A DNA stretch of 64,000 bases from Octopus vulgaris. Taxonomy: Eukaryota. How positions within the stretch are numbered: position 1 is the first letter of the stretch; the number at the start of each line of letters is the position of its first letter. Where the stretch lies: the NCBI GenBank assembly GCA_951406725.2, contig OX597815.1, forward strand, positions 101,990,001 through 102,054,000. Direction: 5' to 3'. The notes under the pieces are model-generated. The model worked only from the letters and a program-made list of their open reading frames with translations, ran no database searches and was not told the DNA's origin. The position numbers and the translations under genes are program-made. Of the stretch, positions 1,412 through 58,375 are shown piece after piece.

Positions 1412-1929
1412 GAATGTTTCTATATTCATATGAATGCGCGCGTATGTTAGTCTATATATAATAAGTGTAGGTGGTATACGCGTGGGTATATATTTACAAA
1501 AAAGAAGTTTGAAAACGCCACTATATAAGATAAATTTTTAATTTCTTAGAAATTTTACGTTTCAGTTCTCTCTCTCTCTCTCTCTCTGTATATATATATA
1601 TATATATATACATAAAAACGCGCGCGCGCATTCATATGAATATAGAAACATTCATGTGTGTCTATACATACACACACATATATAGCATACATACATGTAT
1701 ATCTGCGTGATCATGCATACATGCATACATACATACATACATACATACATACATACATACATACATACATAACTTTCTCGTATTCATACATACCTGCATA
1801 CATTTATAATACACGAAAGCATACGGACTGATATAAATATAAAAAATTATAAATGATACGTAGATGTATGCAAAACAAGCAAACAGATAGACAGACGTGT
1901 GTATATATATATATATATATTAATACTTT

Positions 1930-2375
1930 ATCTAGTTCGGCTTAACAGCCCTTCTTGTCTTGTTATTCTCCTTGTCCTGTCTTTTACTGTTTATATTTTG
2001 TACTGTCGTTACTGTCCTGTTTTTGTTACCATTTTTACCCCTCCGCAAAAAGATCTCAAATTTTATTTAATTTGCTTTTTGCGGGAAGGAAAGTTTCTAT
2101 CGAAGATGCGTATCGCCTTCACTTTCGAAACGCAGAGTTAATGAAGCCATGGCGACTGAAGAAGGGGAATTTTCCTTGTGTTATTTGTCCTGTACTCTAT
2201 TTTTTCGTTGTTTAAGAAAAATGTCCAGTTCCTTGGTTTTGTGTTTATGTTTTAGTTTCTCATTGTGTTCGACGTTTTTTGGTGTCCTGTACCCATATAT
2301 GCGTGTATATATACATGTAGAGGTAGGTACGTACATATATGTATGTATATATGCATATGTTTTATTTATTAATTC

Positions 2376-2380
<5 letters not shown>
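1930..2380 (+). mobile_element. Repeat carrying a rearranged hammerhead (subfamily A); homologous to 52640-53199 and 57900-58375
   Basis: Shares CTGTCCTGTTTTTGTT...CCCTCC, an upstream hairpin and the HHR layout with the 53-kb copies. Confidence 0.6.
2107..2169 (+). ncRNA. Non-circularly permuted hammerhead ribozyme candidate, intact core
   Basis: UGCG-UA^-UCGCC-uucacuuuc-GAAA-CGCA-(16 nt)-GGCGA-CUGAAGA-A-GGGG. Stem III UGCGU/ACGCA and stem I UCGCC/GGCGA are perfect; stem II is weak (one G-C plus G.U). Confidence 0.7.
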
Positions 2381-2406
<26 letters not shown>

Positions 2407-5831: not shown

Positions 5832-6395
5832 GATTTCAAATTCAGGCACAAAGCCAGTAATTTCGGGGAGAGGGTATAAGACCTCAACACTCAACTGATA
5901 TTTATTTTTATCAACTCCGAAGAGATGAAAGTCAAAGTCGACTTTGGCGAAATTTGAACTCAGATGGGCGAAATACCTATTTCTTTACTACCCACAAGGG
6001 ACTAAACACAGAGAGGACAAACAAGGACAGACAAACGAATTATGTCAATTATATTGACCCCAGTGCGTGTGTAACTGGTACTTATTTAATCGACCCCGAA
6101 AGGATGAAAGGCAAAGTCGACTTCGGCGGAATTTGAACTCAGAACGTAAAGGCAGACGAAATACCTATTTCTTTACTACCCACAAGGGGCTAAACACAGA
6201 GAGGACAAACAAGGACAGACAAACGGATTAAGTCGATTATATTGACCCCAGTGCGTAACTGGTACTTATTTAATCGACCCCGAAAGGATGAAAGGCAAAG
6301 TCGACCTCGGCGGAATTTGAACTCAGAACGTAACGGTAGACGAAATACCGCTAAACATTTCGCCCGGCGTGCTAACATGTCTGCCAGTTCGACGC
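5832..6395 (-). mobile_element. Cluster of three partial tRNA-derived SINEs (family 1)
   Basis: Reverse complements of GAGTTCAAATTCCGCCGAGGTCGACTTTGCCTTTCATCC, the B-box-containing body repeated across the window. Confidence 0.85.
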
Positions 6396-43782: not shown

Positions 43783-44598
43783 AGGCGTAGGAGTGGCTGT
43801 GTGGTAAGTAGCTTGCTTACGAACCACATCGTCCCGGGTTCAGTCCCACTGCGTGGCACCTTGGGTAAGTGTCTTCTACTATAGCCTCGGGCCGACCAAA
43901 GCCTTGTGAGTGGATTTGGTAGACGGAAATTGAAAGAAGCCCATATATATATATATATATATAGTTAATCCAAACAAGAAAACAAAAAAAAAACAACAAC
44001 GCGAGGACGTGGAACAAATATAGTATTATTGGACGCTCAGGAAAGAAGGGAAGAAGGAGAGATTAACGTTTCGAGCGGAGCTCTTCGTCGGAAACATAGG
44101 AGAAGGAAAGATCCAGAGAAGGGAAGACAGAGGAAAAAAATCGCCAACGGTACACACGAGGTCACATTTTGAAAGACCGGAAGGAGAAAGGGTGAAGAAA
44201 GATGTTTTCAAAGACAGAAGAGTTTTCGAAGACAGAAGAGTAGTATGGTCAAAGACAGCGGAATGTAGGAGGGGGAATGTGTGTGTAAGTGTGGATGTGT
44301 GCGTGCGTGGAGGTCTGCGTGTGCGTGTGTGTGTGTCTGTGTGCAATGATGACACGTGTTTGTGCGTGTGTGTGTGTATGTGCGTGTTTGTGTGTCTGTG
44401 TTTGTCCCCCTAACATCGCTTGACAACCGATGCTGGTGTGTTTACGTCCCCGTAACTTAGCAGTTCGGCAAAAAAGAGACTGATAGAATTAGTACTAGGC
44501 TTACAAAGAATAATTCCTGGGTCGATTTGATTGACTAAAGGCGGTGCTCCAGCATGGCCACAGTCACATAACTGAAACAAGTAAAAGAGTAAAAGAGT
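43783..44598 (+). mobile_element. Full SINE family 2 with a Penelope-like hammerhead fragment nested in its internal microsatellite
   Basis: Head 43783-43943, insert ~43964-44400, tail 44406-44598; an uninterrupted copy lies at ~46258-46750. Confidence 0.8.
44061..44095 (-). ncRNA. Minimal hammerhead motif, second copy of 1127-1161
   Basis: Same core and stem II; one stem I mismatch. Confidence 0.55.
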
Positions 44599-51643: not shown

Positions 51644-51899
51644 TAATAATAATAATATATTCGCGTAAGCGCAAATGTTCGTACCTACACATGCGCGCCC
51701 ACACACACACGTGCGTGCGCCTAAAAGTATACATTCATCCACCCTCGCTTGAAAACGTACACATCCTCACTCTCATCATTCGCCAAATGTATATGTATAA
51801 ACATACAAATCCACACATACACACGGTCAATAACGGTCAATCAGACAGTAATTTTCCTTTGTATAACGGTCATTTTTCATAGCATTTTTCCGATGGCTG

Positions 51900-51960
51900 G
51901 ATAACTGAAGAGATGGCGGCGTGGATTTCCACCTCGGCATCCGAAACTCGGAGTTTTATC
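51900..51960 (+). ncRNA. Type I hammerhead; copies at 53271-53331, 54654-54714, 56088-56148
   Basis: GAUAA-CUGAAGA-GAUG...GUGG auuu CCAC...CAUC-C-GAAA-CUCgGAG-UU^-UUAUC. Confidence 0.75.
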
Positions 51961-51995
51961 ATGGCTACCGAATAATTGTCACATATTACATTTTC

Positions 51996-52036
<41 letters not shown>

Positions 52037-52385
52037 CGAGCAAAACGCTCCCCGTCCAATGGACGGTGCTGAGTTGTCAAACATTTACACCAAATTTTCT
52101 CAAAACAACTTGTCCGACCGTCCCATAAGGCTCCCCTTTGAGAAACACTGATTTAACCTAAATTTGAGACACCAGCAAAAGATGGATTTCGACTGATGTA
52201 GTTGCGCGTACAAATGCACGTTCACACGGCTTTATCGATCGCATTCTCGCCTGGAATCGATTTTTGTAATTTTTTCAATACCGTCAGTATCAACATATTA
52301 AATTTGAGCGCAGTCGGATGGAGGATGCCCGAGATCTTAGAAGACACACACACAGAGACCGACAGAACGGATTTTATATAATAGA
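52037..52385 (-). mobile_element. Non-autonomous Helitron-like element, one per tandem unit
   Basis: Minus strand starts TCTATTATATAAAA and ends with hairpin CCGTCCATTGGACGG then CTCG (CTAG variant). Confidence 0.65.
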
Positions 52386-52405
52386 TATATATATGAATAT
52401 ATATA

Positions 52406-52475
<70 letters not shown>

Positions 52476-52513
52476 TATATGAATATATATATATATGAAT
52501 ATATATATATGTT

Positions 52514-52558
<45 letters not shown>

Positions 52559-52568
52559 TGTATGTATG

Positions 52569-52604
<36 letters not shown>

Positions 52605-53110
52605 CATATGCACTCATATATACACACACATATTTATATATTATTTAGTATTGTTATTTAACTGAACACCGCGCATCCATTTTCAAGTAAGTTTATCTTC
52701 ACCTTTTTCATGTCGCTCTACTCTACACTGTTTTCTTCCTCCATCCATCTCTAATTCCCTTTTTCTTGTCCTCCTCTTTCACTGTTTTCTATCTGTGTGT
52801 CTCTCTCTCCCTTTTTCTCTTTTTCTCTCTCTCTCTCTCGTTGCTCGTCCATCTTTCTTTTCCTCACGTGACCATCTTTCTTTTCTTTCATGGATTTTTA
52901 AAGAACTGGACGTTATTTTTCTCTCTCTTCTATCGTTTCTCTTTTCAAAGAAAATATTTATTTCCCCTTCGTTATGTTCTAAAGACCCTCCATGTTTGTT
53001 TTCGTTCGGTTACGTTGTATGTCTCCACTGTCCTGTTTTTGTTCCCAACTTTGACCCTCCAAAAATCCTAAATTATATTTTAGAATTTATGGGAGCAACT
53101 GTTTTGAAGA

Positions 53111-53178
53111 CTCATATTGTCGTTAAATGCTCGAAATGAGGTGTAGATAGACAGCCGACAACTGATAAAGGGTAGTTT
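53111..53178 (+). ncRNA. Non-circularly permuted hammerhead (subfamily B, G8A core); copies at 54494-54561 and 55928-55995
   Basis: CUCA-UA^-UUGUCG-uu-AAAUGCUC-GAAA-UGAG-(15 nt)-CGACAA-CUGAUAA-A-GGGUA(g)UUU. Confidence 0.65.
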
Positions 53179-53366
53179 CTCTGTGTTTACTTGTACTATA
53201 ATAACGGTCAATCAGACAGTAATTTTCCATTGTATAACGGTCATTTTTCATAGCATTTTTCCGATGGCTGGATAACTGAAGAGATGGCGGCGTGGATTTC
53301 CACCTCGGCATCCGAAACTCGGAGTTTTATCATGGCTACCGAATAATTGTCACATATTACATTTTC

Positions 53367-53424
<58 letters not shown>

Positions 53425-53792
53425 GAGCAAAACGCTCCCCGTCCAATGGACGGTGCTGAGTTGTCAAACATTTACACCAAATTTTCTCAAAACAACTTGT
53501 CCGACCGTCCCATAAGGCTCCCCTTTGAGAAACACTGATTTAACCTAAATTTGAGACACCAGCAAAAGATGGATTTCGACTGATGTAGTTGCGCGTACAA
53601 ATGCACGTTCACACGGCTTTATCGATCGCATTCTCGCCTGGAATCGATTTTTGTAATTTTTTCAATACCGTCAGTATCAACATATTAAATTTGAGCGCAG
53701 TCGGATGGAGGATGCCCGAGATCTTAGAAGACACACACACAGAGACCGACAGAACGGATTTTATATAATAGATATATATATGAATATATATA

Positions 53793-53860
<68 letters not shown>

Positions 53861-53896
53861 TATGAATATATATATATATGAATATATATATATGTT

Positions 53897-53941
<45 letters not shown>

Positions 53942-53951
53942 TGTATGTATG

Positions 53952-53983
<32 letters not shown>

Positions 53984-54749
53984 CCCATATGCACTCATAT
54001 ATACACACACATATTTATATATTATTTAGTATTGTTATTTAACTGAACACCGCGCATCCATTTTCAAGTAAGTTTATCTTCACCTTTTTCATGTCGCTCT
54101 ACTCTACACTGTTTTCTTCCTCCATCCATCTCTAATTCCCTTTTTCTTGTCCTCCTCTTTCACTGTTTTCTATCTGTGTGTCTCTCTCTCCCCTTTTTCT
54201 CTTTTTCTCTCTCTCTCTCTCGTTGCTCGTCCATCTTTCTTTTCCTCACGTGACCATCTTTCTTTTCTTTCATGGATTTTTAAAGAACTGGACGTTATTT
54301 TTTCTCTCTCTTCTATCGTTTCTCTTTTCAAAGAAAATATTTATTTCCCCTTCGTTATGTTCTAAAGACCCTCCATGTTTGTTTTCGTTCGGTTACGTTG
54401 TATGTCTCCACTGTCCTGTTTTTGTTCCCAACTTTGACCCTCCAAAAATCCTAAATTATATTTTAGAATTTATGGGAGCAACTGTTTTGAAGACTCATAT
54501 TGTCGTTAAATGCTCGAAATGAGGTGTAGATAGACAGCCGACAACTGATAAAGGGTAGTTTCTCTGTGTTTACTTGTACTATAATAACGGTCAATCAGAC
54601 AGTAATTTTCCATTGTATAACGGTCATTTTTCATAGCATTTTTCCGATGGCTGGATAACTGAAGAGATGGCGGCGTGGATTTCCACCTCGGCATCCGAAA
54701 CTCGGAGTTTTATCATGGCTACCGAATAATTGTCACATATTACATTTTC

Positions 54750-54807
<58 letters not shown>

Positions 54808-55208
54808 GAGCAAAACGCTCCCCGTCCAATGGACGGTGCTGAGTTGTCAAACATTTACACCAAATTTTCTCAAAACAACTTGTCCGACCGTCCCATAAGG
54901 CTCCCCTTTGAGAAACACTGATTTAACCTAAATTTGAGACACCAGCAAAAGATGGATTTCGACTGATGTAGTTGCGCGTACAAATGCACGTTCACACGGC
55001 TTTATCGATCGAATTCTCGCCTGGAATCGATTTTTGTAATTTTTTCAAACCTCATACAGGCCTGATACCGTCAGTATCAACATATTAAATTTGAGCGCAA
55101 TCGGATGGAGGATGCCCGAGATCTTAGAAGACACACACACAGAGACCGACAGAACGGATTTTATATAATAGATATATATATGAATATATATATATATGAA
55201 TATATATA

Positions 55209-55290
<82 letters not shown>

Positions 55291-55332
55291 TAGATATATG
55301 AATATATATATATATGAATATATATATATGTT

Positions 55333-55381
<49 letters not shown>

Positions 55382-56256
55382 TGTATGTATGTATGTATAT
55401 ATATATATATATATATACCCATATGCACTCATATATACACACACATATTTATATATTATTTAGTATTGTTATTTAACTGAACACCGCGCATCCATTTTCA
55501 AGTAAGTTTATCTTCACCTTTTTCATGTCGCTCTACTCTACACTGTTTTCTTCCTCCATCCATCTCTAATTCCCGTTTTCTTCTCCTCCTCTTTCACTGT
55601 TTTCTATCTGTGTGTCTCTCTCTCCCCTTTTTCTCTTTTTCTCTCTCTCTCTCTCGTTGCTCGTCCATCTTTCTTTTCCTCACGTGACCATCTTTCTTTT
55701 CTTTCATGGATTTTTAAAGAACTGGACGTTATTTTTTCTCTCTCTTCTATCGTTTCTCTTTTCAAAGAAAATATTTATTTCCCCTTCGTTATGTTCTAAA
55801 GACCCTCCATGTTTGTTTTCGTTCGGTTACGTTGTATGTCTCCACTGTCCTGTTTTTGTTCCCAACTTTGACCCTCCAAAAATCCTAAATTATATTTTAG
55901 AATTTATGGGAGCAACTGTTTTGAAGACTCATATTGTCGTTAAATGCTCGAAATGAGGTGTAGATAGACAGCCGACAACTGATAAAGGGTAGTTTCTCTG
56001 TGTTTACTTGTACTATAATAACGGTCAATCAGACAGTAATTTCTCTTTGTATAACGGTCATTTTTCATAGCATTTTCCCGATGGCCGGATAACTGAAGAG
56101 ATGGCGGCGTGGATTTCCACCTCGGCATCTGAAACACGGAGTTTTATCATAATTGTCACATATTACATTTACAGATAAATTCCTATATTTACATAAAATC
56201 GAGGTCTCTTTCTTTCATTTGTTGTCTTACCATTTTTATCAATATATATATATATA

Positions 56257-57862
56257 CAGTTGCGGCCAAAATGTTCAGAACGGCATTGTTTTCGTCAGAA
56301 AAGTAGATATAATTTTTTATCAAAGTTGTTTTATGTTTTATAATTTTCACAGACAATAAATACGATATTATTTGTTATTGCCTGAGATTTTGGTGTAATT
56401 TGAGAGGATTAATACAAAAGTTATGGATGATTTAGTGATTTACTGCAAAACCCATGGCGGCCAAAACGATCAGAACGGTTGCTTTTACTCCATGTTTTAG
56501 TATATTTAATCGGCGAACTCTAATGTTTTGAATTTGTTTACGTGACGGTTCGTTTACTAAACATTAGTGTACTTTGTTAATATAATGCCACTTACTCTGT
56601 TACCAATTCGTCAGCAGATTATTAAGCTTCGAAGGAAGGATAATTTAAGTATTGGATCTATTGCAAAGATTGTTAACAAGTCAAAAAGTGTTGTACACGG
56701 TATTCTTAAGGTCTACGATGATTGTGGTTCGTGTTAAGCAAGAAAGTTTACAGGTAGGCCAAGAAAAACGACCTAGAGAGAAGATCGTGCTATGGTAAAG
56801 TTGGTTAAAAAGGACAGATTTAAAACTGCTGCTGCTGTTTCTCGGAAAATGAGCATTGTATTGAAGAAAACTTTATCTCGAAAAACTGTGTCTCGTTGTT
56901 TAGTTGAACATGACCTACAAGCAAGAGCACCTGCAGTGAGACCACTGATCAGCTCCAAGAATAAAAAGTGTCGTCTTACCTTTGCAACCGAACATGTGTT
57001 GTGGTCTCAAGAAAAATGGCAAACGGTGCATTTCAGTGATGAATCTAAGTTGATGCTATTTGGCTCAGATGAGAAAAGGTACGTTCGTAGAAAAGTAGGT
57101 GAAAAATTGTTGCCTAAATGCCTTAAGACTAGTGTTAAATTCGGTGGAGGAAGTGTCATGGTTTGGGGAATGATATCTGGAGATGGTGTGGGCCCTTTGG
57201 TGCGATTACATGGAAAGTTAAATGCAGGAGTTTATAAACAACTTGTAAAAGATCATGTCTTGCCTGTGCTGAGAAATTCAACTTAGCGACCACCCATATT
57301 CATGCAGGACAATGCCACATGTCACAAGGCTAAGGTGGTCATGAACTTCCTCAAGGCTGAAAAGGTTATTGTTATGGATTGGCCAGCTCAAAGCCCAGAT
57401 CTCAATCCTATTGAAAATGTTTGGAATATTCTAGGAGAACGTTCGAAAGCCAGAAATCCTAAAACAACTGAGCAATTATGGAATGCCTTTCAGGAAGAAT
57501 GGAATAAGATCACCCAGCAAGAAATTGAAAATTTAATTTCCTCATGCAGTCGAAGATGTCAGAGTGTGATTGAAGCTAAAGGGCTTCACACTAAATATTA
57601 AATAATTCCAGCATTCTCTGTCATTTTTGATTTTTTTCATTTTTTCATCCGTTCTGATCATTTTGGCCGCCATGGGTTTTGCAGTAAATCACTAAATCAT
57701 CCATAACTTTAGTATTATCCTCTCAAATTACACCAAAATATCAGACAATAACAATTAATATTGTATTTATTGTGAAAATTATAGAATATAAAACAACTTT
57801 GATAAAAACTTGTACCTACTTTTCTGACGAAAACAATGCCGTTCTGAACATTTTGGCCGCAA

Positions 57863-57865
<3 letters not shown>
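56257..57865 (+). mobile_element. Full-length Tc1 transposon (DD34E) with ~220-bp IR/DR-type ends, inserted in (TA)n
   Basis: TA-CAGTTGCGGCCAAAATGTTCAGAACG ... CGTTCTGAACATTTTGGCCGCAACTG-TA; inner repeats at ~56457-56478 and ~57649-57671. Confidence 0.95.
56585..57601 (+). pseudogene. Tc1 transposase, single frame with three premature stops
   Basis: GRPRK, FSDESK, QDNA and SPDLNPIE with 34 residues between the second D and E; stops near 56735, 56774 and at 57284. Confidence 0.93.
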
Positions 57866-57899
<34 letters not shown>

Positions 57900-57903
<4 letters not shown>

Positions 57904-58375
57904 TAAATGGGTAAAGGACGTCACCAACTGCGTAAACAACACGAAAAACGTAGACAAACGAGTTAAATACGTAAACAAATAGAGAAAAATGGAAAACAGA
58001 ACACGTGAACACAGAGGAACTACCCTTCATCAGTTGTCAGCTGTCTATCTGCTTCTCATTTCGAGCATTCAACGACAATATGAATCTTCAAAGACAGTTA
58101 CTCCCATGAATACTAAAATAGAATTTAGGATTTTTGGAGGGTCAAAGTTGGGAACAAAAACATTAGGAAAAGAGAGTTGGACGATGGTCACGTGTGAAAA
58201 GCGAGATAGGGTAGAAAGTGAGAGAGAGAGAGAAAGCACTGAAAGAGGGTGAGGAGGAAAAGGGAATTAGAGAAGGATGGAGGAAGAAAACAGTAAAAAG
58301 TAGAGTCGCATCGAAAAGGTGAAGATAAACTTACTTGAAAATGGATGCGTGGCGTTCAGCTAAATAATAATAAAC
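57900..58375 (-). mobile_element. Diverged copy of the subfamily B rearranged-hammerhead element, with its 3' tail
   Basis: Reverse complement aligns with 52640-53195. Confidence 0.8.
58017..58084 (-). ncRNA. Non-circularly permuted hammerhead ribozyme candidate, intact core (best copy)
   Basis: Minus: UUCA-UA^-UUGUCG-uu-GAAUGCUC-GAAA-UGAG-(15 nt)-UGACAA-CUGAUGA-A-GGGUA(g)UUC. Confidence 0.75.

Follow-up and report, generated by a model that had tools for sequence, protein, structure and literature searches.

We consider it probable that a large and old family of Penelope-like repeats in the octopus genome, devoid of open reading frames (ORFs) and similar to retrozymes, carries a doubly pseudoknotted hammerhead ribozyme of type SGC that is predicted to cut. 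As judged from the compensatory changes described below, the S-G-C structure is real and under selection. The octopus genome harbors approximately 10,000 copies, in at least 10 subfamilies, of this non-circularly permuted hammerhead, and descriptor searches confined to types I-III miss whole hammerhead families.

The hammerhead motif of the window and its second subfamily

At positions 2107-2167 of the window (the whole 64-kb stretch of DNA analyzed), the three blocks of a hammerhead follow one another in the 5'-to-3' order S (cleavage site), G (GAAA) and C (CUGANGA), the non-circular order of the type SGC hammerhead (Eckert et al. 2023, PMC10085705). The core elements CUGANGA, GAAA and UH are intact in this copy, which belongs to subfamily A, and, as elsewhere in the family, a base is left unpaired between A9 and G10.1 (A2163 in this copy; Table 1). 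The cut is predicted to fall after H17 (A2112). Position numbers, like the role accorded to G8, are those in general use for hammerheads. The first-pass annotation had reported the stems UGCG/CGCA (III) and UCGCC/GGCGA (I) in this copy, and CUCA/UGAG and UUGUC/GACAA, respectively, in a distantly related repeat, subfamily B; all four are present in the sequence as claimed.

Table 1. Positions of the ribozyme elements and repeat copies in the window
Feature	Position	Strand	Description	Basis
Subfamily A repeat copy, 5'-truncated	1921..2402	+	bounded by (TA)n at either end	88-98% identical to 29 other loci (blastn)
P4 5' strand, extension of stem III	2093..2097	+	pairs with 2143-2147	
GA, internal loop between P4 and stem III	2102..2103	+	partner 2140-2141: GA in the family, AA in the window copy	
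Block S	2107..2117	+	stem III 5' strand, U16.1, H17 = A2112, stem I 5' strand	sequence, pair counts
Stem III 5' strand UGCG	2107..2110	+	followed by U2111, A2112	
Stem I 5' strand UCGCC	2113..2117	+		
Stem I-stem II linker	2118..2122	+	~3-6 nt across subfamilies	alignment
Block G	2123..2134	+	stem II 3' strand 2123-2126, GAAA 2127-2130, stem III 3' strand CGCA 2131-2134	
P4 3' strand	2143..2147	+	G2146 private, leaves a G·U pair	
Block C	2151..2167	+	stem I 3' strand GGCGA 2151-2155, CUGAAGA 2156-2162, unpaired A2163, stem II 5' strand GGGG 2164-2167	
Subfamily B ribozyme, tandem copy 1	53111..53173	+	G8→A, probably inactive	
Subfamily B ribozyme, tandem copy 2	54494..54556	+	G8→A	
Subfamily B ribozyme, tandem copy 3	55928..55990	+	G8→A	
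Subfamily B ribozyme, separate insertion	58022..58084	-	CUGAUGA intact	

The window copy departs from the commonest subfamily A core, which is identical in 11 of 30 loci, at positions 2123, 2139, 2140 and 2146, and at these four positions nearly all contig depth in 4 public runs has the letters of the commonest core. The weakness of stem II that had been noted for this copy is genuine but is in part private decay: with the C that the commonest core has at 2123, the duplex energy changes from +0.5 to -2.2 kcal/mol, which is weak even so. At the gathering score, Rfam gave no matches within the 64-kb window, and nested folding gave z values near 0 for 6 copies; neither method can represent crossing stems.

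Subfamilies A and B are homologous and collinear; in local matches, one of them spanning ~390 nt at 66%, they are 65-80% alike. Because they align end to end around the ribozyme, the differences between their stems are substitutions at homologous positions: 3 of the 4 stem III pairs and 2 of the 5 stem I pairs changed on both sides, and none was broken. The notion that the core is kept in the second subfamily holds for the copy at 58 kb and for most other B copies, but the three tandem B copies read CUGAUAA. Among loci found by homology and inspected by eye, the core is intact in 27 of 30 for subfamily A and in 21 of 27 non-window loci for subfamily B. The tandem B copies lie in a local DNA-level tandem duplication (51820-56160; units of 1383 and 1434 nt), which bears the B copy with G8→A together with unrelated repeat pieces. 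Other repeats in the window include fragments of a Tc1/mariner-like DNA transposon at 56260-57000 and 57750-57870, recognized by eye, and a 188-nt SINE-like repeat in 2.5 tandem copies at 5893-6349.

Covariation of the stems and a fourth helix

A search of the 2.8-Gb genome with the pattern of block G followed by block C returned 10,307 matches, compared to 151 for the reversed control, the pattern also picking up unrelated repeats (5 of 72 distinct rows). Since the core and two stem II pairs were set by this pattern, the invariance of the core in rows selected with it would be circular as evidence. When the pattern was relaxed to omit the extra A, the 6,928 matches (4,214 for the control) were mostly noise, with a few older SGC-like families (L280, L284). 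In L280, L284, L272 and L277, U or G follows CUGANGA, and the stems are partly decayed. In a metagenome scan, 0 of the 80 loci scored (of 84) reached a stem score of 9/9 and 2 reached 8/9, which is the chance level.

Of the first 100 places listed, 70 were used and gave 72 distinct rows, from which 5 (an ordinary type I element) and 26 (5' flank truncated or deleted) were excluded. The alignment of 46 rows, chosen by eye, consisted of the 41 rows kept, three window copies, L002 and L035. Across the three stems, 92.7% of the cells were paired, compared to 78.5% after shuffling, and 138 cells differed on both sides, compared to 51.7, figures to be read with the shared ancestry of the subfamilies in mind, which makes the cells non-independent and inflates the shuffle controls; with slid partners, pairing did not exceed 53.7%. 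H17 was A in 21 rows, C in 18, U in 7 and never G. We further compared the majority letters of 11 groups, namely, 10 subfamilies grouped by eye and the Naiad type described below. In stem III, 43 of 44 cells pair (permutation mean, 29.9) and in stem I, 54 of 55 (permutation mean, 44.7), and none of 20,000 permutations of whole 3' strands among the 11 groups matched the observed pairing of the two stems. For stems I and III, the two-sided changes in the subfamily table number 11 or more, alongside one U·U, one G·U and one non-pairing majority state.

These results uphold the earlier proposal that double substitutions preserving the helices reflect selection on the structure, and the genome-wide collection of copies and comparison of subfamilies that had been suggested as a check came out in its favor for stems I and III. 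A rival explanation, complementarity arising by chance within a repeat of high copy number, with covariation that is only apparent and stems from shared ancestry, could draw on the relatedness behind the shuffle controls and on the selection of rows by eye. Nevertheless, we regard it as highly improbable and largely refuted by the two-sided changes with their single non-pairing majority state, by the slid controls, by the full 9/9 stem score, attained at 0.5% of random sites versus 24 of the 72 pattern rows, and by the Naiad type, which has the same layout in different letters.

Stem II is short and rich in G·U pairs in all groups. Among the 11 group majorities, 42 of 44 cells are paired (20 Watson-Crick; permutation mean, 38.5; P=0.018), with the two core-proximal pairs fixed by the pattern in most rows. 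Most subfamilies have the pairs G-C, G·U, G·U, G-C, whereas B and H have G-C, G·U, G-C, U·G. In A, the stem has 4 bp, two or three of them G·U, and the Naiad type has a stem II of 2 bp. The first-pass annotation had made its case depend on a stem II in the subfamily A consensus; the stem is present in the A majority, albeit weak. In 8 of 10 subfamilies, G8 and A9 could instead be sequestered in a perfect alternative pairing of 5 bp. As an alternative register of stem II (G8-C, A9-U), it was rejected, being broken in B and H, and is retained as no more than a possible off state.

Furthermore, there is a fourth, covarying helix, P4, which prolongs stem III past a GA/GA internal loop and is formed by the 5' flank together with the linker that separates stems III and I. 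Cognate P4 duplexes average -7.4 kcal/mol, compared to -4.7 kcal/mol for non-cognate ones, the cognate partner being the better one in all 7 groups and in 38 of 46 rows (47 of 53 rows when the Naiad rows are included). The GA of the internal loop is found in 40 of 46 rows on the 5' strand and in 35 of 46 on the 3' strand. This loop may form tandem sheared pairs or a kink, for which kink-turns offer a comparison, and the geometry of the hammerhead suggests that P4 kinks so that the chain returns to stem I. P4 would be a new means of stabilizing a hammerhead core. Two other helices were considered and rejected: the helix 'I' of Eckert et al., which joins the outer ends of stems I and II (-4.4 versus -3.8 kcal/mol; 25 of 46 rows), is clear only in B, and an outer helix P0 (2086-2095 with 2168-2177, spotted by eye in A) is not family-specific (24 of 46 rows) and is weak in Naiad.

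5' ends of copies at the predicted cut

To collect the 5' ends of subfamily A copies, we used a motif that lies 100 nt 3' of the site; out of 833 matches, 90 of the 100 listed first furnished 93 copies, of which 84 were retained after dropping tandem partners, one strand duplicate and two internal deletions. Fourteen 5' ends fell at +0 to +20, compared to 4.2 expected (scan P=10/2000). In a second table, 17 of 67 ends lay at 0 to +14 and 6 at -15 to -1, 4 of the latter being, as judged by eye, TA-microhomology calls or an internal deletion. Genome-wide, we counted (TA)4 junctions alone, on the reverse strand alone, because the listing for the other strand has overlapping duplicates. In the A group, 93 of 815 anchors just 3' of the cut had such a junction versus 5 of 502 just 5' of it (Fisher P=5e-15), and in B, 46 of 671 versus 1 of 302 (P=5e-7), the 5' and 3' anchors sampling slightly different mixes of subfamilies. 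An interval 30 nt further 3' contained 11 junctions, a raw count without denominator.

Thus, in two families of unlike sequence, the rate of 5' ends falls 10- to 20-fold from one side of the predicted bond to the other, and this pile-up 3' of the bond is an indication of cleavage in vivo. Among the B, F and Naiad-type copies, several start at the cut itself, within the TA ambiguity, whereas in the A group the majority of 5' ends are at +5 to +9. Junctions with (TA)n could be favored in A3 by a TAT at +6; the absence of TA from this interval in B argues against microhomology as the cause of the pile-up. About 80% of the copies that reach the site (57 of 71) read through it.

Self-cleavage of the predicted ribozyme is likely in our estimation, against which have to be set the weak stem II, the alternative pairing of G8 and A9, the position of most A ends, the extent of read-through and the findings on the Anolis PLE, for which the accessible text of Frangieh 2024 describes cleavage as protein-assisted and unneeded for insertion in vitro, with no reads ending at the site. 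Alternatively, the fold could be a non-cutting signal for binding or packaging by the reverse transcriptase (RT) protein, or a vestige, with ends piling up through RT stalling or template switching. The clustering of most ends 5-9 nt inside the cut would suit this explanation, as would the poor stem II with its competing pairing and the dispensability of cleavage in Anolis. However, a stall is expected at +43 to +63, the 3' edge of the helices, which is precisely where the end hazard is lowest (0.0012 per nt versus 0.010), and neither the step at the predicted bond in two families of different sequence, nor the exclusion of G from H17, nor the intact cores of the A and B loci found by homology fits a non-cutting element. 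We therefore judge this alternative quite unlikely.

For cleavage, the following course of events can be proposed. The transcript would fold the usual hammerhead core, with the short linker keeping stems I and II together and with P4, connected to stem III via the GA/GA loop, guiding the chain, as it leaves stem III, back to stem I. The RNA would be cleaved after H17 (A2112), the cutting being perhaps partial or reversible, and a Penelope-type RT/endonuclease acting in trans would copy it from ~230-290 nt downstream. On cut RNA, the RT would run off near the cut, giving copies that start at +0 to +20, and on uncut tandem or re-ligated circular RNA, it would read through, giving longer and more-than-unit copies. 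The step in 5' ends at the predicted bond represents in vivo evidence bearing on the role of hammerheads in Penelope-like elements.

The repeat element and its relatives

The subfamily A unit is 794 nt long, arranged head to tail in the tandem locus L025, and its longest ATG-initiated ORF has 98 codons' worth of residues (98 aa); the A4 unit, of 836 nt, is collinear with it at 70% identity. These ORF-less head-to-tail units of 794-836 nt with one hammerhead apiece are organized like non-LTR retrozymes, from which they differ in that the hammerhead is S-G-C rather than type I. Copies are 5'-truncated and located in (TA)n, as partial tandems or with an inverted neighbor (L025, L018, L188, L239), and 5' truncation, partial tandems, inverted copies and a microsatellite target form the pattern of Penelope-like elements (PLEs), as characterized in the accessible text of Craig et al. 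2021 (PMC8557442). The median identity between pairs of copies amounts to 94% for A and 83% for B, and the family is present in contigs of public runs labeled as four organisms.

Tandem units of 650-840 nt raise the question of whether the blocks work between two strands, in a domain-swapped dimer, or across tandem units, with S and C of one unit and G of the next. The junction would then be conventional, and the S-G-C order would merely block monomer cleavage, as in the dimeric Penelope hammerheads; metazoan PLE hammerheads act as dimers and have low activity (Cervera and de la Peña 2014, PMC4209133, accessible text). The weakness of stem II is compatible with such an arrangement, and so is the failure of nested folding to give the structure, although pseudoknots make that expected. 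Against it speak the tight, conserved spacing of the blocks, a stem III of full 5 bp with no conserved palindrome, a I-II linker like that of monomeric SGC ribozymes, the local closure by P4 and the fact that most copies are single, and we hold it to be unlikely.

The comparisons that follow draw on the accessible text of the papers cited. The topology is already known as type SGC; the octopus setting and the variant are new as far as Eckert et al. 2023 (PMC10085705) can be followed there. HRIMA-1 and its variants, described in that paper, share with the octopus family the S-G-C order, three crossing stems, CUGANGA/GAAA/UH and a short I-II linker (typically 3 nt in SGC ribozymes versus ~3-6 nt in octopus), and SGC ribozymes cleave in vitro at 0.007-0.19 per min. 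However, they came from metatranscriptome contigs with hairpin ribozymes and from a wider search, and the octopus family is set apart by the base left unpaired at 9/10.1, by a stem II rich in G·U and by P4. They also require the helix joining stems I and II, and because this helix is unsupported in octopus, the family has the same topology as the HRIMA-1/Eckert SGC variant motifs without being a member. The search of Eckert et al. covered all of RefSeq 85; the accessible text names no octopus, mollusc or cephalopod, and keyword searches of the supplement gave no octopus, mollusc or animal, although alignment rows labeled by accession alone would escape them. In the literature covered, we met with no SGC hammerhead reported from an animal or a transposon, most subscription papers lying outside that coverage.

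The minimal type I hammerheads of Penelope elements (PMC4209133) resemble the octopus motif in the unpaired 9/10.1 base, in G10.1-C11.1, in the many variable families per genome and in their location in Penelope-like repeats; they differ in having C-G-S order, a long stem II, a minimal palindromic stem III and dimeric action, compared to S-G-C order, a complete stem III and a short stem II in octopus. Animal non-LTR retrozymes (Li et al. 2026, bioRxiv 10.64898/2026.07.22.740005) likewise consist of ORF-less head-to-tail units with single hammerheads and are linked to PLEs, but their hammerheads are type I and occur in tandem arrays, whereas the SGC copies are mostly dispersed, 5'-truncated and single. 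Naiad PLEs (PMC8557442) share the (TA)n target, partial tandems and inverted 5'-truncated copies; unlike them, subfamilies A and B are ORF-less.

A non-circularly permuted RNA fold was reported in 2023, and the accessible text leaves the manner in which such a permutation can evolve open (PMC10085705). As a tentative scenario, the permutation may have arisen in cephalopod PLEs from the hammerhead that they already had, unpaired 9/10.1 base included, and separately from the environmental SGC RNAs. Its stabilization would have been achieved by a novel means, an extension of stem III that folds back to stem I by way of a kink at tandem G·A pairs. The monomer would be cut in vivo and would drive a circular-RNA retrozyme family of 10,000 copies, the cut being recorded in the genomic 5' ends.

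Naiads were described as lacking canonical hammerheads, with eight 'half cores' flagged ('HHR_half_core'), including Naiad_Ovul and Naiad_Esco (Craig et al. 2021, PMC8557442, accessible text). We inspected by eye the last ~600 bases of 17 of the 54 published consensus sequences, the names being assigned by file order. The two octopus Naiad ends (Obim, Ovul) have the S-G-C layout with P4, the Esco end has stems I, III and P4 but a stem II without pairing, and four nematode and spider half-core ends have the ordinary C-G order with long loops; the layout was not evident in the remaining ends among these 17. In the octopus genome, the Naiad-type SGC motif has 300 matches, compared to 0 for the control, and the 3' end of this family matches, by eye, the published octopus Naiad ends. 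In one locus (L266), decayed RT motifs, recognized by eye, lie upstream of the Naiad-type ribozyme on the same strand (RVT_1 E=0.12, below the Pfam cut-off), the fetched copies all stopping short of the N-terminal endonuclease. Thus, in octopus, the S-G-C layout explains why Naiads appeared to be without hammerheads. Two oyster Naiad 3' UTRs (the ends before Naiad_Sglo and Naiad_Tgra) contain a conserved GC-rich stretch of ~70 nt without a hammerhead core, which could be another structured RNA.

Outside the ribozyme, no similarity was detected between subfamilies A and B and the Naiad 3' UTR. A 9-nt word is common to the tail of the A/B unit (L025) and the Naiad-type 3' end (L132), possibly a priming signal and possibly chance. 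Since none of 241 contexts contained a contiguous ORF, and Naiads have one with an N-terminal GIY-YIG and RT, subfamilies A and B are not classed as Naiad. A canonical PLE ORF upstream of one A copy (L011) was rejected as the source, the copy being located in its (TA)n tail and not contiguous with it. The SGC motif was absent from the 30 GIY-YIG loci examined of 150 scored, so that no mobilizing element was found there. A candidate for mobilizing the SGC repeat is a young Penelope-like family. Many members of this family (e.g., L392, L397, L404) have intact 781-aa frames, and its 3' end has, by eye, an apparent minimal type I hammerhead with U3/A8 replacing C3/G8. A U3/A8 hammerhead variant is known from Schistosoma.

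The window also contains two ordinary Penelope-type type I hammerheads, at 1127-1160 and 44061-44094 (both on the minus strand). Both have a C at position 4 and share the unpaired A, and in the 3' strand of stem II and GAAA they are identical to subfamily B, a lead for the origin of SGC. The occurrence of SGC hammerheads beside ordinary Penelope-type hammerheads with the same unpaired base makes this origin amenable to phylogenetic study. Loci L064, L104, L119, L127 and L128 represent a further abundant element with a type I hammerhead, which has the unpaired A and a stem II of 5 bp.
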